Below, in pieces: positions 2,464 to 9,276 of a DNA stretch of 64,000 nt. The notes below the pieces were generated by a model that did not search any database, had not been told where the DNA came from, and saw nothing but the letters and a program-made list of their open reading frames with translations. This DNA is from a virus. Lineage: Duplodnaviria; Caudoviricetes. Within the stretch, counting starts at the first letter, position 1, and each line of letters opens with the position of its first letter. The stretch lies in the IMG/VR virus record IMGVR_UViG_2889049205_000001, positions 128,001 through 192,000 of that record; one strand, written 5' to 3'. The position numbers and the translations under genes were made by a program.

Positions 2464-2694
2464 GAAAATGTACAACGGGTGTTATTTCTGCTCGTATTTT
2501 GTGTAAATTCCTAGAATATTGCAGAAAATACGAGCTATTGCATATGCTCCCCTCTCCAAATGGCAATATTTCGGTTTCCGTGTAATACATTAGGCACAGC
2601 TATGGATAATGGTGTATAGGTGTGGTATAGTGTATTACATCAATGTGATACTGATGCAGCAGACCGTGCCGGGTCGAAAGCATAAAATTGGAGG

Positions 2695-3321
2695 ATGCAT
2701 GCAATGAACAAAGAAGAACTGATCATTGGGCAGCTATTGAGCCAGGCCGAACAGCTGGTTTATCGCTTTCTGAAGGAAGAATCCCTTCACGGAACGATAA
2801 AGCTATCAATGAAAGAAATGGCCAAGCAAATTCTGCATCGTTACAATGACGAAATTCAGGGACGCCCAAACCCAACCACTGGTGAAACGGAGAAAACGCT
2901 AAGCGAAGCGACTGTCCATCGTGCGATCCGTAAAATGACTAAAGAGGGCATTGTCGGTGTTCTTGCCAGCCAGGAAAAGTCTGAAAGCAACGAGATAATT
3001 TTCTATGGCCTTCCCGATGAGGAGCGTCAAGTTGACGAATTGATGGATCTCGGACAAAAACTCAGCCTGAGCTTGTCCAGATTCCAGAGTTTGCTTGCTC
3101 GCAAAGATCAGGAGCTAGAGCAGGTGAAGCGTGAACGTCAAGGGCTTTTCAAAGAAATCGACGCCGTCAAGGCAGCGAATGCGCAGCTGACAAACACGAA
3201 CACCATGCTCAACCAAATGCTGCAGGAGTATCTAGCCGGGCACGAGGTATTTGGACAAGGGAAAATAATCGAAGCGGAGAAGCTTCCTGATGGCACCATC
3301 GCAGTGATCCTCCAACAGTAA
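2695..3321 (+). CDS. winged-HTH plus coiled-coil protein
   Basis: SEATVHRAIRKMTKEGIV recognition helix, heptad-rich C-terminus; GGAGG RBS. Confidence 0.65.
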   Translation: MHAMNKEELIIGQLLSQAEQLVYRFLKEESLHGTIKLSMKEMAKQILHRYNDEIQGRPNPTTGETEKTLSEATVHRAIRKMTKEGIVGVLASQEKSESNEIIFYGLPDEERQVDELMDLGQKLSLSLSRFQSLLARKDQELEQVKRERQGLFKEIDAVKAANAQLTNTNTMLNQMLQEYLAGHEVFGQGKIIEAEKLPDGTIAVILQQ

Positions 3322-3697: not shown

Positions 3698-4124
3698 TTG
3701 GGAGTCCCTTGTACATAATTACGAGCAAGAAAATCGAGCCCTGCTGGTTCCGTCTGAGAATAGCGCAGCTACGCTTCATCGGTTTAATGTCCGGTTAAGC
3801 GAGCTGTTCACTCGTGCCCATTATGATTTCGCAAGGGCTAGACGGAATAAGGACGCTGTCGAGCGGCTGGTCGAAAACGTCATAAAGGACTACTATAACG
3901 GGCCGAATGAGCTCGCTCGTAAGGCAGCCGGCATTCAATACGCCAGGTGCTATCCAGCTCCGGAGGAATGGCATGCGGATACAGTCGATTTGTTCGATCT
4001 GGAGGATCGGTTCCGGTATTATTTCTATTCCTTGGAATCCACGATCAAAACCCTAGCCATGAAATCCGAGGCGAAAATCACGAACAATTCGCTACTGAAG
4101 TTGGAAAAGGATCTAACCGGCTAA
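3654..4124 (+). CDS. hypothetical protein
   Basis: GGCGGTG RBS, helical ORF within the operon. Confidence 0.65.
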   Translation: MSLVLTRLVRETSTDWESLVHNYEQENRALLVPSENSAATLHRFNVRLSELFTRAHYDFARARRNKDAVERLVENVIKDYYNGPNELARKAAGIQYARCYPAPEEWHADTVDLFDLEDRFRYYFYSLESTIKTLAMKSEAKITNNSLLKLEKDLTG

Positions 4125-4145
4125 CGCCGAAAGGAAGTGCATTAC

Positions 4146-4679
4146 ATGGATTGCGTTTACGAGGCGGAATGCGCCAATTTCGGCCAGTGCCGGCGGTGCT
4201 TTAACCATGACATGTACAAGCCTCATAAAGAATATCAACAGCTGCGCTCCCGATCCGAAAATCGGAAAGAAGTTAAACAGGGGATGGACTTCGAGAATAG
4301 GGGCACGAAAGCTTATAATTCAGCCGTAACTCGAGCCCGTCAAGCAGCTCGCCGTCAACCAAACTCCGGAGCAATGTCTAATGCGCTCGGGGATATGATC
4401 ACCGAAGAACAATTGACCGCCTCGCTTGCGGAGTTCAAGGAGCGCTCTAGTGTAGGCGCCAAAGGCGGAAAGCAGATCACGATCAAAAAGGAATGGCTGG
4501 ATAAGCTTGCCTGGGAATCTAGGCAAATGAATCGGGACTTTTATTTCTTGCCCTTCTCATTTGCTGGAGCAGAGAAAGATTATGTGGCCATGGAATATGA
4601 TATGCTGCTTCGCTATATTCAGAATATTCAATTCCTCCTTGAACAGAATCGTTTATTGAAATTGCAACTCAATGGTTAA
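4146..4679 (+). CDS. Hjc-like PD-(D/E)XK nuclease / putative Holliday junction resolvase
   Basis: GMDFEN...RRQPNSGA...GDMI...AEFK pattern; Cys-rich N-terminus. Confidence 0.6.
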   Translation: MDCVYEAECANFGQCRRCFNHDMYKPHKEYQQLRSRSENRKEVKQGMDFENRGTKAYNSAVTRARQAARRQPNSGAMSNALGDMITEEQLTASLAEFKERSSVGAKGGKQITIKKEWLDKLAWESRQMNRDFYFLPFSFAGAEKDYVAMEYDMLLRYIQNIQFLLEQNRLLKLQLNG

Positions 4680-5175
4680 TGCATTTCAACAATGGAAGGA
4701 GGAGGTGATCCTGGACGATTTCGGTTTTTATAATGCTGAGATTCGCCGCAACTTGAATAAGGAACTACACAGCCTGGTCGATCACGCTAATAGGCATATC
4801 GACCAGCGAGATGATTATCCGGCCCATGAGATCATCAAGAGCATTATTTCGCAGTACAGTGCTCGGAGATCGCTATCGGACAAGCAGCGGGTGTGCTTGG
4901 CAAAGTTCATCTTTTACATTCAACATATTCAACCTGTTCCGCCGAGAAAGAAATATTTGCAGAGACCAGTTGTGCCGCCTTCTGATCCAAAGAAGGATCC
5001 GAAATCGTTCATGTATTCTCCGTTCGGAAATCCTAACTTGGGCTCTTATGAGGTTAGAGAAGGACTTGAATTAGTGGCCGCATACATAAACAAGCAGCAA
5101 AGTACCCGCCATCAGAGTCGTGTAAACAGCATGGCAATGAGGGCCGGCCTTAGCGTACATCGTATCCAAATATGA
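4672..5175 (+). CDS. hypothetical protein
   Basis: 167-aa ORF overlapping the previous stop. Confidence 0.6.
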   Translation: MVNAFQQWKEEVILDDFGFYNAEIRRNLNKELHSLVDHANRHIDQRDDYPAHEIIKSIISQYSARRSLSDKQRVCLAKFIFYIQHIQPVPPRKKYLQRPVVPPSDPKKDPKSFMYSPFGNPNLGSYEVREGLELVAAYINKQQSTRHQSRVNSMAMRAGLSVHRIQI

Positions 5176-5207
5176 AATAAACATCCTAAATAAAGGGGCA
5201 CTTGGTC

Positions 5208-5939
5208 ATGTCCGTTTTGATTGCAAATTTTTTGGTATCCCTGGAATGGCTTACAATAGTCATTCTGCTGATTTCACTGTTTAACCTCAGCTTCAGCGGG
5301 TTCATCCCGCACATTATTTTTATTTCCTGGCTGATGGCTTTTGTCGGATGGGGGATTGATCAAACTTACTTATCGGGATCTACGTATGCACTGCTGATTC
5401 AAGTAATAGCGCTGTACCTGTGTACTTGGCTTATATTGCGGATCAACGTCTTTTATGCATTCGGAATATCCGTTGTGTCATACGGAATCTACATGATCAC
5501 TCAGTCTGCATTGTTTTTGGGGCTGCATGCTATATCGTTCATGGATGAAACCGACTTGGTGCCGTTATCCGAAAAACAGCTTATCTTGCAAGGACTTTCA
5601 ATAGCGGTTCCGCTTTTGATTAGTTACCTTGCGACAAAGCTTCGTATCCGTTACAACCTGTTCGTTCCTACGACAGAGTTCATCAAGCTGCAATTCAATC
5701 GCCTAAATAATATCACGGTGTTCGTGCTCATATCCATGATCGGCATATCGGTGGTTAACTTCCACTTCATAACCGAAGGCAAGATTACTTTGTTCATTCT
5801 GATCTCAGTGATCCAGCTCGCATGCGTCGCCTTGCTCTTGTATTTGTTCAAGCGAAAGGAAGGGATTAAACATGATAGAAAAGTGGTCAGAAAAATCAGC
5901 TATAGCAATAAAGAGGATGAATCCCGAGCAAACGCATAG
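5208..5939 (+). CDS. multi-pass membrane protein resembling an AgrC sensor domain, without kinase domain
   Basis: 6-7 hydrophobic segments, no H-box or HATPase motifs; directly upstream of agrB. Confidence 0.7.
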   Translation: MSVLIANFLVSLEWLTIVILLISLFNLSFSGFIPHIIFISWLMAFVGWGIDQTYLSGSTYALLIQVIALYLCTWLILRINVFYAFGISVVSYGIYMITQSALFLGLHAISFMDETDLVPLSEKQLILQGLSIAVPLLISYLATKLRIRYNLFVPTTEFIKLQFNRLNNITVFVLISMIGISVVNFHFITEGKITLFILISVIQLACVALLLYLFKRKEGIKHDRKVVRKISYSNKEDESRANA

Positions 5940-6396
5940 CATTGCCGTTCTCACTTACGGCTTCACAGTGCTGCTCAATGGATTTCTTACCTTATTTGCC
6001 TGCATTATTTTTGGGGCAATTACCGGGCATTTCACTGAAACATTAATCTCGCTGCTTACGTTTATCATGTTGCGGCAGATTTCAGGTGGATATCATTTGC
6101 GCTCGGCTTTATCGTGTTGTCTGTTTTCTGTAACCATTTTTTTATTGATTCCGTGGATTCATGTCGCTAACGAGAACATTCTGTATGCTATGGATATATG
6201 TAGTCTTGTCCTTGCTGCTGTCTATGCACCATCAAACATCAGGAATCAGTCGAACATTCCAGAGAGGTTTTATCCTCTCTTGAAATACCTCTCAGTGCTG
6301 CTCATTGCTATCGGATCGTTGCTCCGGTCAGAAGTGGTTTCCATCACCATTCTGGTCCAGTGTTTGCTTCTGATCCGAAAGCCTGAGAGGAGGTGA
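5872..6396 (+). CDS. agrB: AgrB-family autoinducing peptide processing protein
   Basis: LRQISGGYHLRSALSC (R..GG.H...C catalytic motif), YAPS, multiple TM helices. Confidence 0.92.
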   Translation: MIEKWSEKSAIAIKRMNPEQTHSIAVLTYGFTVLLNGFLTLFACIIFGAITGHFTETLISLLTFIMLRQISGGYHLRSALSCCLFSVTIFLLIPWIHVANENILYAMDICSLVLAAVYAPSNIRNQSNIPERFYPLLKYLSVLLIAIGSLLRSEVVSITILVQCLLLIRKPERR

Positions 6397-6401
6397 TTTC
6401 A

Positions 6402-6524
6402 ATGAAAAGGTTTGTAGCAAAGCATACTTCTACGCTTGTTGCCGCTGTCGCATTTGCCGTTGTAGCCATGGCATCCCCATGGCTGACTAACAGCCCTGAC
6501 GTTCCTGCAGAGCTGAAAAAGTAG
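6402..6524 (+). CDS. agrD: AgrD-like cyclic lactone autoinducer precursor (40 aa, absent from ORF track)
   Basis: AGGAGGTG RBS; MKRFVAKHTSTLVAAVAFAVVAMASPWLTNSPDVPAELKK with amphipathic leader, Ser-X4 ring and PxxPxEL tail. Confidence 0.9.
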   Translation: MKRFVAKHTSTLVAAVAFAVVAMASPWLTNSPDVPAELKK

Positions 6525-6542
6525 AAACTGGAGAACAAATTT

Positions 6543-6905
6543 ATGGACCTTCCAGCAATCAGCCACGATGGCTCGCCAGTATTGCTTGATGAATCTGATA
6601 TATTCTCTGTGCGTCTACTTGGAAGGCGGATAGTAATGACCACTGTCACTAATGAGGAATATTACTGGCCGCTTTCCATCGATGACGTCTCTATGTTCTT
6701 CGGCCCAGGATTTGAAATATCCGATCGAAAAAACATTTTCAATGCAGAGAAGATCAAAAATTACGATTCCAGTAAGGGGGCCGTATATAGTGACGAGGTA
6801 GTTACCAATAAATCCGCTTCGGTTGCGCTGAACGATACGAAAATGAGAGAAATCAAAAGAAAACTAGGAAAAGAGAAGGATATCGCAAGCGATTGGGAGT
6901 ATTAG
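6543..6905 (+). CDS. stand-alone LytTR-family DNA-binding protein (no receiver domain)
   Basis: DI..V...RRIVMTT...GFEISDRKNIFNAEKIKNYD resembles LytTR F.R.HRS..VN...I; only 120 aa. Confidence 0.7.
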   Translation: MDLPAISHDGSPVLLDESDIFSVRLLGRRIVMTTVTNEEYYWPLSIDDVSMFFGPGFEISDRKNIFNAEKIKNYDSSKGAVYSDEVVTNKSASVALNDTKMREIKRKLGKEKDIASDWEY

Positions 6906-7118
6906 TAGTCAAATAGTCCCAATATAGCCTAATTACATAAACCTTACAGCTTGTCAATAGGAATTTATGTACACAAATAGGCATGGAAGCATTTGACCTC
7001 GGCTGGTATACTTTAGGATATAAGGCAGCGACACAAGATTTGAAATTGCTATGTAGCAATGCCCTGTATCAAATCATTGTGGTTGATGTACTACCTATTT
7101 TTGGAGGCGTACCTACCC

Positions 7119-7403
7119 ATGGCGAGATCTTTCACTGTTTACGGCTTTTTCACTTTCAAAGTAAATCAAACTCCTCACGCTGAGGACATCGCTCTTAACC
7201 TCAATTCCATTTTGTCGCAAATTCCTACCGGGAACACAAAACCTGTCGTGATTCCATGTTATCTGGATAATTCCGATCGTGAGGCGATTGTTGTTGCTGA
7301 TCACGCAATCAGCGAGGATCTCGCAGCCGAGATTGTCGAAAAATCAGGACAAGATTTCACATATACGTCCTTTGTGCATCTCATCCAGAATACGGCTTGC
7401 TAA
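7119..7403 (+). CDS. hypothetical protein
   Basis: GGAGG RBS before ATG 7119. Confidence 0.55.
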   Translation: MARSFTVYGFFTFKVNQTPHAEDIALNLNSILSQIPTGNTKPVVIPCYLDNSDREAIVVADHAISEDLAAEIVEKSGQDFTYTSFVHLIQNTAC

Positions 7404-7508
7404 CCACAATCAAAAGAAAAACTCACATACAGTGGGTTTTATTTTGATTGTGGGGGTACTTTCCGGTCGCTATCGCTCTCATTCATTTTAGAATACAGGA
7501 GGTGTCCC

Positions 7509-7973
7509 ATGGGAGACTTTTATTACGCCAAACTATTAATTCCGGATCGCTTCATGAATGACGAGATTCGGGCCCGAATTGCATCGCATTTCAAGATGAA
7601 TCGATTTGAAGAAATCGACGGGAAGATCACGCTGGACAGCGGACTCTGGATGATGGAGGATCCGCTGGCACGGAGCGGTGAGTTTGATCTTGAGCATTAT
7701 TTGGTAGAGCAGGGGGTTCCGTTTGATCGTTGGACGGAGAATACGGGCTCTTCTAGTCCGGCGTACAATCGGGTGTTCCGTCCTGGTCTATTGGATCGAG
7801 AGTTTCCGGAGTCCGATGAAGGCACCGTTGTCCCCGTTACTAAGATTCAAGAGATCTACGATCGTGGAGGAGCCCTTGATATTGTCGAGGGGATTGAAGA
7901 TTTGCTCAAAGAATACAACCCGAAGTATCCTGCAATTGAATCCTATACCGATGGAGGCGAAGCCAATGAGTGA
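7509..7973 (+). CDS. hypothetical protein
   Basis: AGGAGGTG RBS; acidic 154-aa ORF. Confidence 0.75.
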   Translation: MGDFYYAKLLIPDRFMNDEIRARIASHFKMNRFEEIDGKITLDSGLWMMEDPLARSGEFDLEHYLVEQGVPFDRWTENTGSSSPAYNRVFRPGLLDREFPESDEGTVVPVTKIQEIYDRGGALDIVEGIEDLLKEYNPKYPAIESYTDGGEANE

Positions 7974-8649
7974 TTTGCTGCAAGAAGCACTGCTGTCCGA
8001 AGATGTGTCCATGCTCGACGAAATGATGGAGATGCTGGCCAATGTAAAAGCGGCCGGCGGCCATGTCCCACAAGAAGTGGACGAAATGACGATCCGTCGC
8101 ATGATGATTCGCATGAAGATCAACGAGCGAGAGATCTCGAAAGACAAGAAGATGAAATCCGCTATCGTCGAAACATGGGATGGTCGTATTAAGAAGAAGG
8201 AAGAAGAGGTCAAGACCCTCCGTGCCTTCATTGAACGATGGATTATCGAAACCAACAAAGGCAAGCCGTTGCAGCTTGACGTCGGAACCGCCAGCACACG
8301 CAAGGTTCCGCATGCGTTCGAGATCAAAGACCCAATCTTGTTCCGTGAATGGCTAAAATCGATCGGCAAAGAGGCCACCTTCCTCAAGCCGCAAGAGCTC
8401 GATGTGACAGCTGCGAAGGCGGATATTATCGAGTATGTTGACAAGAATGCCGACGAGATGGCAGAAGCAGAACTGAAGAAATTGCAGGAAGAAAATCCAG
8501 ATAAGAAATTCACAAAAGCGGAGCTGAAGCGCCGAAAAGACGAACTTATCGCCGGTTATATTCCTGCACTCGTTGCAAAAGTCGGCCTTCCAGAAAACGT
8601 TGGTGAATATAAGGCAGAAGGTCAATCAGTTAACCTTCGTTTTGCTTAA
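7966..8649 (+). CDS. Mu Gam / Gp157-like host-nuclease inhibitor family protein
   Basis: GGAGG RBS; coiled coil followed by K.LQLDVGTASTRK...EI.D pattern. Confidence 0.55.
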   Translation: MSDLLQEALLSEDVSMLDEMMEMLANVKAAGGHVPQEVDEMTIRRMMIRMKINEREISKDKKMKSAIVETWDGRIKKKEEEVKTLRAFIERWIIETNKGKPLQLDVGTASTRKVPHAFEIKDPILFREWLKSIGKEATFLKPQELDVTAAKADIIEYVDKNADEMAEAELKKLQEENPDKKFTKAELKRRKDELIAGYIPALVAKVGLPENVGEYKAEGQSVNLRFA

Positions 8650-8655
8650 CCTGTG

Positions 8656-8708
8656 CCCCGATCTGATGATAATGCGATGTATTGCATTACATTGATCGGG
8701 GTGTTTTT
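8656..8708 (+). terminator. intrinsic terminator (long hairpin)
   Basis: CCCCGATC...GATCGGGG stem followed by TGTTTTT. Confidence 0.7.
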
Positions 8709-8964
8709 ATTCCTGGACTTGCGATAGGCTACACGTCGGAGCTGTCATTGTGCGTAGTATAAAACACCAGATCTCCAAAAAGATATAGTGGCTCCTTCGA
8801 GTGTTTCGATCAAGCATTGATGTAGGCTGCAAGGTCGTTAAAATCATTGCAATCGAAGTATTTACGCCGAATGAAGTTCAATACGCCAACGACTAACATA
8901 ATAATCAATATGCCATGGATCTATTTCGCAAGGCTCAAGTCAGCCCAGTTTAAGTCGTGAAAGG

Positions 8965-9276
8965 ATGAGCCTGTTGAATACTTATACAGTCATAGCCATA
9001 TTGATGAATACCCTTATCAATGGTGGCCCGTGCATGATTATTTTTTTCCCGTCAATTGGATATATCTGTTTGGCCATTGCCATAATTTTGAGCATCTTCA
9101 TAAAGAGGAAAGCGGAAGCTCTGCAGGACAAGACTGACGAGCTGAAACAACAAATTGTGGAACTCAAAATGGCGCAAGTTGATCTGAATAACGCTCAGAA
9201 TGAGTTTATTAAGCTGTCAGAACAGCTCAACGAGAAGATGCAAGAAAAAACCGGCATCTATCGCCGCATTTCTTAA
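8965..9276 (+). CDS. small membrane-anchored coiled-coil protein (start uncertain)
   Basis: one TM segment followed by a coiled coil. Confidence 0.5.
   Translation: MSLLNTYTVIAILMNTLINGGPCMIIFFPSIGYICLAIAIILSIFIKRKAEALQDKTDELKQQIVELKMAQVDLNNAQNEFIKLSEQLNEKMQEKTGIYRRIS

Follow-up and report, generated by a model that had tools for sequence, protein, structure and literature searches.

An agr-type cassette without kinase and receiver domains on a jumbo phage genome

The window analyzed here is a stretch of 64,000 nucleotides (nt), positions 128,001 to 192,000 of the IMG/VR virus record IMGVR_UViG_2889049205_000001 (Duplodnaviria; Caudoviricetes). At 5208-6905 it contains four co-directional, tightly packed genes that code for a membrane protein, AgrB, AgrD and a LytTR-only protein. 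The agr system is the textbook example of peptide quorum sensing in Gram-positive bacteria, and its signal travels by phosphotransfer from AgrC to AgrA. As judged by homology, the four products correspond to the AgrC sensor, AgrB, AgrD and the LytTR domain of AgrA; they form a conserved unit, with a conserved peptide core and operator-like site, in which neither a kinase nor a receiver was found. We consider it moderately probable that this is a phage-borne agr-type peptide signaling unit that works without a phosphorelay.

Membrane protein, peptide machinery and regulator

The ATG at 5208 of the membrane-protein gene is preceded by an AAAGGGG ribosome-binding site, and the product has no match in Pfam, NCBIfam or PHROG. 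An AlphaFold2 (AF2) model obtained from an alignment of 44 relatives displayed seven helices, with a predicted local distance difference test (pLDDT) of 91.4 and a predicted template-modeling score (pTM) of 0.85. Lysine and arginine are concentrated in the loops 80-82 and 147-166 and in tail 219-245, and loop 111-123 is acidic. This distribution of charges predicts an external N-terminus and an internal basic tail, a topology in which the basic loop 147-166 and tail 219-245 are both cytoplasmic. The protein stops about 27 residues past helix 7, and no kinase domain was found by Pfam or NCBIfam.

The relationship of this protein to AgrC was explored by fold and profile comparisons. In the fold search of the ESM Atlas with the AF2 model, the top matches were two unnamed clusters of 197-223 amino acids (aa). 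The next ranks were two clusters of HATPase_c_5 sensor histidine kinases, matched with a template-modeling score (TM) of 0.67-0.68 over 214-218 residues; HATPase_c_5 is present in 100% of the members of one of them and in 18% of the other. Moreover, at lower scores (per-genome E values from 2e-14 to 3e-6) the profile of the membrane family picked up longer open frames, of 418-453 aa, in other families, and the match covers their ~210 N-terminal residues. Eight such loci (L100-L107) were fetched, where the encoded proteins have 406-450 aa. The long protein is directly upstream of AgrB in all eight, and in four (L101, L102, L103 and L107) a regulator of 240-245 aa with a receiver (REC) and a LytTR domain follows AgrB-AgrD. 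In L106 the long protein contains SPOB_a and HATPase_c_5 and is a bona fide kinase. The alignment by hhalign of the kinase-less family with the N-terminal domains of the eight long proteins gave Prob 99.3% and E 2e-20 over 178 columns, and an S-x-x-E motif in helix 1 is common to the two groups. Sequence profiles thus identify the membrane protein as homologous to the sensor domain of AgrC without its kinase: the sensor module is present, and the DHp/HATPase_c_5 part of AgrC is missing from the protein.

The possibility that a kinase had been truncated locally, a check set beforehand in the first-pass annotation, was rejected. The 50 nearest phmmer relatives among 1.84 billion representative proteins all have 110-293 aa, mostly 213-240 aa, which shows that the protein belongs to a conserved kinase-less family. 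A search with the family profile for relatives of 430-2000 aa returned none, which is weak evidence. Pfam gave no domain match for any of the 44 family members, including no protease or transporter family. In the PDB, the profile found no match by sequence, Foldseek with the model reached a best E of 0.38, which is not meaningful, and VIA-align returned only helical-hairpin matches with Z up to 9.1, the noise level for helical proteins. The hhalign comparison of the profile with one unrelated membrane kinase (L039) was not significant (Prob 2.5).

The long proteins other than that of L106 deserve a comment of their own. The C-terminal halves of those from L100-L105 and L107 give no Pfam kinase match at E 1e-3; by eye, the histidine of the H-box is replaced (N-R-D-F versus R-H-D-F in L106) and the G-boxes are missing. 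In L101, L102, L103 and L107 the receiver of the REC-LytTR regulator looks intact. These AgrC-like proteins may be pseudokinases that stand between a full AgrC and the form without a kinase.

The second gene codes for AgrB, with scores of E 3.9e-23 and 82 bits (cut-off 23) for PF04647 and E 1.2e-32 for phrog_10353. Its GGYH motif contains His75, which is seven residues from Cys82; we take this spacing to be that of the catalytic pair H77/C84 of Staphylococcus aureus AgrB. In the whole genome that carries the cassette there are only two AgrB genes, each within a kinase-less cassette.

The AgrD precursor scores 27.1 bits against a cut-off of 19 for TIGR04223. Its best start is ATG 6402, with the ribosome-binding site AGGAGGTG 7 nt upstream, and GTG 6393 is also open. 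AgrD has no cysteine, and its C-terminal part reads A-S-P-W-L-T followed by N-S-P-D-V-P-A-E-L-K-K. The same register, [C/S]-x4 and then x-x-P-x-[IV]-P-x-E-L, is found in 16 homologous cassettes, which leads to the prediction of a five-residue serine-lactone ring, S-P-W-L-T. The profile score above the cut-off, the register of ring and tail and the position directly after agrB are all features of membership in the AgrD family.

The fourth product, of 120 aa, is a LytTR protein by three independent lines of evidence. In the ESM Atlas it has a feature score of 0.93, with 193 of 256 features shared and 30 of 30 matches being LytTR, and the Atlas's own model of it compares with LytTR clusters at TM 0.63-0.70. 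Its positional homologues in the host copy, in phage Abouo (gp47) and in loci L004, L014, L017 and L018 score above the Pfam LytTR cut-off. Finally, a profile of 20 LytTR proteins, that of the window included, matches the LytTR domain of AgrA (4xqq/3bs1) at E 2.3e-6 over positions 6-101. Residues D61-R62 are invariant in the family alignment. With 120 aa in all, the protein is too short to contain a receiver domain as well. A word-indexed protein search with the 120-aa protein retrieved only itself, and a single-sequence AF2 model (pLDDT 54) was too poor and was not used for a fold search. The identities that the first-pass annotation had given to the four genes, that of the LytTR gene among them, and the absence of kinase and receiver that it had noticed, are in this way supported by Pfam, NCBIfam, Atlas and profile matches.

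Carrier genome, downstream region and distribution

The cassette is carried by contig C3 (228,841 bp) of a 7.5-Mb genome. Genes for a UvsX-like recombinase, a primase, helicases, a sliding-clamp-like factor and a 1159-aa DNA polymerase are found in the window, and the sole Terminase_6N match and the sole HK97-capsid match of the whole genome are both on C3. Positions 1-17066 of C3 are repeated at 211772-228837 with 99.94% identity, either as long direct terminal repeats or because a circular or concatemeric assembly overlaps itself. Given this terminal repeat of 17,066 bp, the unique length is ~211.8 kb, near that of its relative L023. By these replication genes and the terminase and capsid matches, C3 is a jumbo phage genome of ~212 kb, which supports the placement of the cassette on a mobile element in the first-pass annotation. 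There is no match to a tyrosine integrase or ParB on C3, the only recombinase and partition types sought, and a temperate lifestyle is unsupported.

The relative L023, a metagenomic contig of 214 kb, shows synteny over this region, and the genes on either side are 32-72% identical. All five genes are retained in it, with identities of 42-52% (membrane protein 42%, AgrB 46%, LytTR 51%, downstream gene 46-49%, plus AgrD). The leader of its AgrD has diverged, and the core A-S-P-W-L-T is identical to that of the window. No match was obtained in the nucleotide search of window positions 4000-9000 against phages, nor when phages and plasmids were searched by tblastn with the membrane protein, and searches of viral and metagenome contigs with single proteins and the two-sequence alignment revealed no further relatives. 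The LytTR family profile retrieved one locus, L048, from viral sequences.

On the 3' side of the lytTR gene there are a 213-nt spacer, an open reading frame (ORF) of 94 aa and a terminator-like hairpin. Alignment with L023 revealed three blocks that are kept in an otherwise diverged spacer. The block at 6951-6966 is TTGTCAATAGGAATTT, which together with L023 reads TTGTCAATA[G/T]GAATTT; that at 6975-6987 is AAATAGGCATGGA, which together with L023 reads AAAT-n3-CATGGA; and that at 7007-7012 is TATACT, which is -10-like. No second copy of the 16-mer at 6951-6966 exists on C3 at up to 3 mismatches. In the whole genome there is none at up to 1 mismatch, and two copies, both on chromosome C1, are found at 2 mismatches. 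The stretch 6951-6987 resembles a dedicated operator of a locally encoded regulator, to which the LytTR protein may bind. The 94-aa protein is 46% identical to its positional counterpart in L023 (E 6e-20), and it has no Pfam match and no informative Atlas neighbor. A similar hairpin was seen by eye after the homologous gene of L023. In chromosomal homologues a repeated AAAATATGGA-like box was observed by eye near an extended -10, and in a count of repeated 9-mers upstream of chromosomal cassettes the signal was swamped by the AT-rich background.

The coordinates of the unit are collected in Table 1. At its 3' end the membrane-protein gene is overlapped by agrB, and each of the four frames of the cassette is intact, with good overlaps and ribosome-binding sites. 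The first-pass annotation had described the block as AT-rich; its GC content is 43.2%, versus 50.0% for the replicon.

Table 1. Features of the cassette and of its 3' side in the window
Feature	Position	Strand	Remarks
Seven-helix membrane protein, AgrC sensor-domain homologue by profile	5208..5939	+	243 aa from ATG 5208; 245 aa from TTG 5202
AgrB membrane peptidase, predicted to cyclize and export AgrD	5872..6396	+	PF04647, phrog_10353, GGYH motif
AgrD precursor	6402..6524	+	40 aa; 43 aa from GTG 6393; TIGR04223
Stand-alone LytTR DNA-binding protein, no receiver	6543..6905	+	120 aa
Candidate operator and promoter	6951..7012	+	blocks common to window and L023
Conserved 94-aa protein, candidate output gene	7119..7403	+	GGAGG ribosome-binding site
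Terminator-like hairpin closing the unit	7418..7440	+	9-bp stem, then ATTTTGATTG T-run (pattern scan)

Two further features were observed next to these. A 12-nt inverted repeat at 6892-6923 (ATTGGGAGTATT / AATAGTCCCAAT, 92% complementary) spans the stop codon of lytTR with no T-run after it, and may be an RNA-end or processing hairpin. Upstream, between a Holliday-junction-resolvase-like gene and the cassette, a 167-aa ORF at 4672-5175 has no family match and no counterpart at that position in L023.

The kinase-less layout is common in related bacteria. A profile search found the membrane family in 37 of the 401 genomes sampled from the class, and the full cassette is present in 17 of 19 loci from genomes of the family, which were pulled with the 120-aa protein. 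In a second sample, 29 loci were pulled from class genomes with the membrane-protein profile and their 1.5-kb flanks were inspected. AgrB is immediately 3' of the membrane gene in every one of these loci, and a stand-alone LytTR protein of 110-134 aa is present in 19. The recurrence of this gene order in both samples exceeds a chance arrangement. Metagenomic and genomic contigs also carry the cassette, sometimes with the LytTR gene first. The Brevibacillus phages Emery and Abouo have the same four families beside lysogeny genes; for phage Davies the evidence is limited to an AgrB match, under which a 'membrane protein' is annotated. The membrane-protein gene occurs as two paralogous copies in L087 (1495-2902), in L025 (6001-6663 and 7445-8131) and in phage Emery (L027; gp53 and gp54).

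The host chromosome carries a cassette of the same order (L002), with a membrane protein of 221 aa, an AgrB of 175 aa, an AgrD of 40 aa and a LytTR protein of 133 aa that scores 27.1 bits in Pfam. The ring of the host AgrD is S-Y-L-I-F. With this copy and the two samples above, chromosomal counterparts that the first-pass annotation could only guess at were encountered. Between the phage and host cassettes AgrB alone is detectably similar (40%), and tblastn detects neither the LytTR protein nor the membrane protein; therefore, a recent capture of the cassette from this host's chromosome was rejected. The phage cassette probably forms a channel separate from that of the host.

The host cassette ends in a terminator-like hairpin (L002, ~2640-2730, minus strand), and by eye a tRNA-like gene adjoins it on the opposite strand. 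On the host chromosome C1, the stretch 4695612-4696751 contains a third member of the membrane family, of 238 aa (E 2e-18 to the family hidden Markov model). It is followed by a 117-aa protein with a weak LytTR match (12 bits) and a motif like the F-E-I-S-D-R-K-N-I-F-N of the window, with no AgrB nearby. These two may be a sensor-regulator pair without peptide genes of its own.

Proposed signaling route and its alternatives

The simplest reading of the sequence data is that the cassette is an agrCBDA operon whose receptor lost its kinase, or never had one, and whose regulator lost its receiver: the order AgrC-AgrB-AgrD-AgrA is kept, and both phosphotransfer domains are missing. Within the unit phosphotransfer is impossible, since there is neither a DHp/ATPase nor a receiver. 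We propose that the signal is passed by direct protein contact instead, and it probably passes without phosphorylation, as the first-pass annotation had suggested.

The route would begin with AgrB, which through His75/Cys82 would process the 40-aa AgrD to the cyclic lactone Ser-Pro-Trp-Leu-Thr and export it. The seven-helix protein, as the evolutionary counterpart of the peptide-binding module of AgrC, would act as the receptor. Both of these steps are suggested by family membership. Occupancy would then be passed on by contact, with the basic cytoplasmic loop or tail of the receptor holding or releasing the LytTR protein according to whether peptide is bound. Free LytTR protein would act at a single downstream operator, 6951-6987, and so on the promoter of the 94-aa gene. 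For these later steps, we infer the contact between membrane protein and LytTR protein, the DNA target and the output, like the binding of the peptide before them, from domain architecture, synteny and the conserved footprint in the spacer.

Several observations weigh against this reading. No promoter-like site was found in the gap upstream of the membrane-protein gene, which is only 27-33 nt long; with no room for an upstream promoter, the autoregulatory loop typical of agr and of the LytTR regulatory systems (LRS) is not evident. The assignment of the operator is based on two sequences only. The 120-aa protein itself gives no direct Pfam match, remaining below the reporting limit, and its DNA-contact residues differ from those of AgrA, with D-R in place of H-N. 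In the sample of 29 class loci, no LytTR gene was seen in the 1.5-kb flank in 7, and 3 (L079, L080 and L096) combine a membrane protein of 214-236 aa and AgrB with a LytTR protein of 242-253 aa; the membrane protein is therefore not always paired with a bare LytTR protein. By eye, the longer LytTR protein of L079 looks receiver-like at its N-terminus, with no Pfam check.

These loci bear on an alternative in which the membrane protein, instead of being a receptor, helps to make or export the peptide or to tolerate it, for example by leader removal, and the LytTR protein is a constitutive repressor or antagonist of the BlpS type that acts independently of the peptide. The LytTR-only BlpS of Streptococcus gallolyticus (108 aa) is a competitive repressor, as determined by electrophoretic mobility shift assay and footprinting (PMC8545106). 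Membrane protein and AgrB without a LytTR gene in the flank, in 7 of the 29 loci, would fit this arrangement, and the constant position of the membrane gene immediately upstream of AgrB would suit a biosynthetic partner too. However, the membrane protein is homologous to the AgrC-like sensor module and not to known processing enzymes, with 0 of 44 family members matching a Pfam protease or transporter family. BlpS works beside a full two-component system and there is none in the operon of the window. The host pair of membrane protein and LytTR-like protein without AgrB is also better explained as sensor and regulator, and we regard the accessory role as unlikely.

Cross-inhibition occurs between staphylococcal agr groups. 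By analogy the cassette might serve mainly to interfere with the host, its peptide antagonizing the kinase-less cassette of the host or its LytTR protein competing with it; jamming of host agr was one of the uses raised in the first-pass annotation, and phage agr genes have been proposed to manipulate host signaling (PMC3901668). The host does have a paralogous cassette of the same order with a different ring, S-Y-L-I-F, and both rings close on serine in the same register. Nevertheless, the phage cassette is complete and self-contained, its similarity to the host copy is limited to AgrB (40%), which argues for an orthogonal channel, and the operator-like 16-mer is absent from the host chromosome at up to 1 mismatch, with 2 copies at 2 mismatches. 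Interference as the main function is accordingly rather improbable.

Phosphorylation could also have been retained through an unlinked host kinase that partners the membrane protein or senses the peptide itself, with the LytTR protein as a secondary modulator. VirS in Clostridium perfringens is an unlinked kinase that senses a peptide, and clostridia are known to have orphan agrBD loci whose peptide is sensed by such kinases. Three cassettes have a LytTR protein of 242-253 aa, receiver-like by eye in L079, and a receiver would need a phosphodonor. In the genome examined here the strongest HATPase_c_5 matches are a 587-aa LytS-like protein and soluble-looking kinases of 375-385 aa, none of which adjoins agr genes, and no AgrC-type kinase was recognized among the HATPase_c_5 matches inspected. 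As the 120-aa LytTR protein has no receiver to accept a phosphate either, this explanation is very improbable. It is harder still to credit that the cassette is an inert passenger left from an agr operon that was captured and is now decaying. It is richer in AT than the replicon and no independent upstream promoter was seen, yet none of its four frames is broken, its ribosome-binding sites and overlaps are good, and AgrB retains the catalytic dyad. The unit also persists in the diverged L023, where identities are 42-52% and the peptide core is unchanged, and the kinase-less form is a large conserved family.

If a unit that signals without a phosphorelay is accepted, its use to the phage can be considered. 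It is conceivable, and tentative, that the jumbo phage senses the density of infected or carrier cells by means of a phosphorylation-free cyclic lactone, and that one promoter switches a 94-aa effector that decides between carrier state and lysis or acts in superinfection exclusion. With only four genes, a candidate operator and a single output gene, the module is small, and its reconstitution in Bacillus subtilis would be feasible.

Comparison with known systems

The cassette resembles canonical agr in the His/Cys dyad of AgrB, in the five-residue ring and the P-x-x-P-acidic tail of AgrD, and in the homology that links the membrane protein with the AgrC sensor module and the regulator with the LytTR domain of AgrA. 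Its gene order is that of the AgrC-AgrB-AgrD-AgrA operons sampled here (L100-L107), the order in Staphylococcus aureus being agrBDCA. In contrast with canonical agr, the receptor has no DHp/ATPase and the regulator no receiver, the predicted ring closes on serine as a lactone and not on cysteine, and no autoregulated promoter is evident upstream. A large conserved family that has neither phosphotransfer domain but retains the gene order together with sensor, peptide machinery and DNA-binding domain implies another coupling mechanism for an AgrC-type receptor, and one for which the ligand is predicted.

The LRS of Streptococcus mutans, HdrRM and BrsRM (PMC6193735), also consist of a stand-alone LytTR protein co-encoded with a membrane protein and no kinase, and the receiver-less LytTR protein and the membrane protein of the window likewise share one co-directional, overlapping block of four genes. 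By analogy, control by membrane sequestration is a likely logic for both. The two differ in that no homology to HdrM or BrsM was found and none of the 44 family members has a Pfam domain, in that the regulator gene is last in the cassette and first in LRS (PMC6193735), and in that the cassette has AgrB and AgrD, so that a ligand is predicted, whereas the signal of LRS is unknown. The LRS paper draws no link between LRS and agrBD (PMC6193735). The first-pass annotation had viewed the cassette as a hybrid with LRS; this view is unsupported, given a membrane protein that is an AgrC-sensor homologue, a regulator that matches the DNA-binding domain of AgrA and the agrCBDA order. BlpS (PMC8545106) is similar to the regulator of the cassette in being a LytTR-only protein of ~110-120 aa in a peptide-signaling locus; however, it competes with the phosphorylated REC-LytTR regulator of its own locus, and the cassette contains no such regulator or kinase.

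Phage-borne agr genes are known from phiCDHM1 of Clostridioides difficile (PMC3901668), which differs from the present case in having a full AgrC kinase and no regulator. In the same work, Hargreaves 2014, kinase-less AgrC-like proteins were remarked in passing for the Brevibacillus phages Davies, Emery and Abouo; that work contains neither a mention of the fourth gene, for the LytTR-only protein, nor a proof of homology or a model (PMC3901668). The kinase-less feature was thus partly noticed in 2014 and is not unique to the window. Those phages are temperate, of 45-59 kb and with integrases, in contrast with the ~212-kb replicon, in which no integrase was found. The Brevibacillus phage papers list AgrB only in a figure legend, the agr work on Paenibacillus polymyxa concerns a canonical AgrC/AgrA locus, and full-text literature searches found no description of the four-gene unit. 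What is added here is the profile-level homology to AgrC, the matching operon order, the jumbo-phage context, the conserved peptide core and the candidate operator.

The presence of the cassette on phages that range from 45-kb temperate Brevibacillus phages to a ~212-kb replicon makes it a candidate channel of phage communication. In arbitrium, a linear peptide is imported by Opp and sensed by a cytoplasmic tetratricopeptide-repeat (TPR) receptor. The AimP/AimR/AimX system and the cassette share a secreted phage peptide, a receptor and, as proposed here, a single small downstream output gene. They are built from unrelated parts, however: the lactone of the cassette is presumably sensed at the membrane, and no lysis-lysogeny module was identified nearby. 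If the proposed route is correct, the cassette would represent a second phage communication system, mechanistically unrelated to arbitrium, as well as a new mode of action for AgrC-type receptors, the stoichiometric capture of a regulator.

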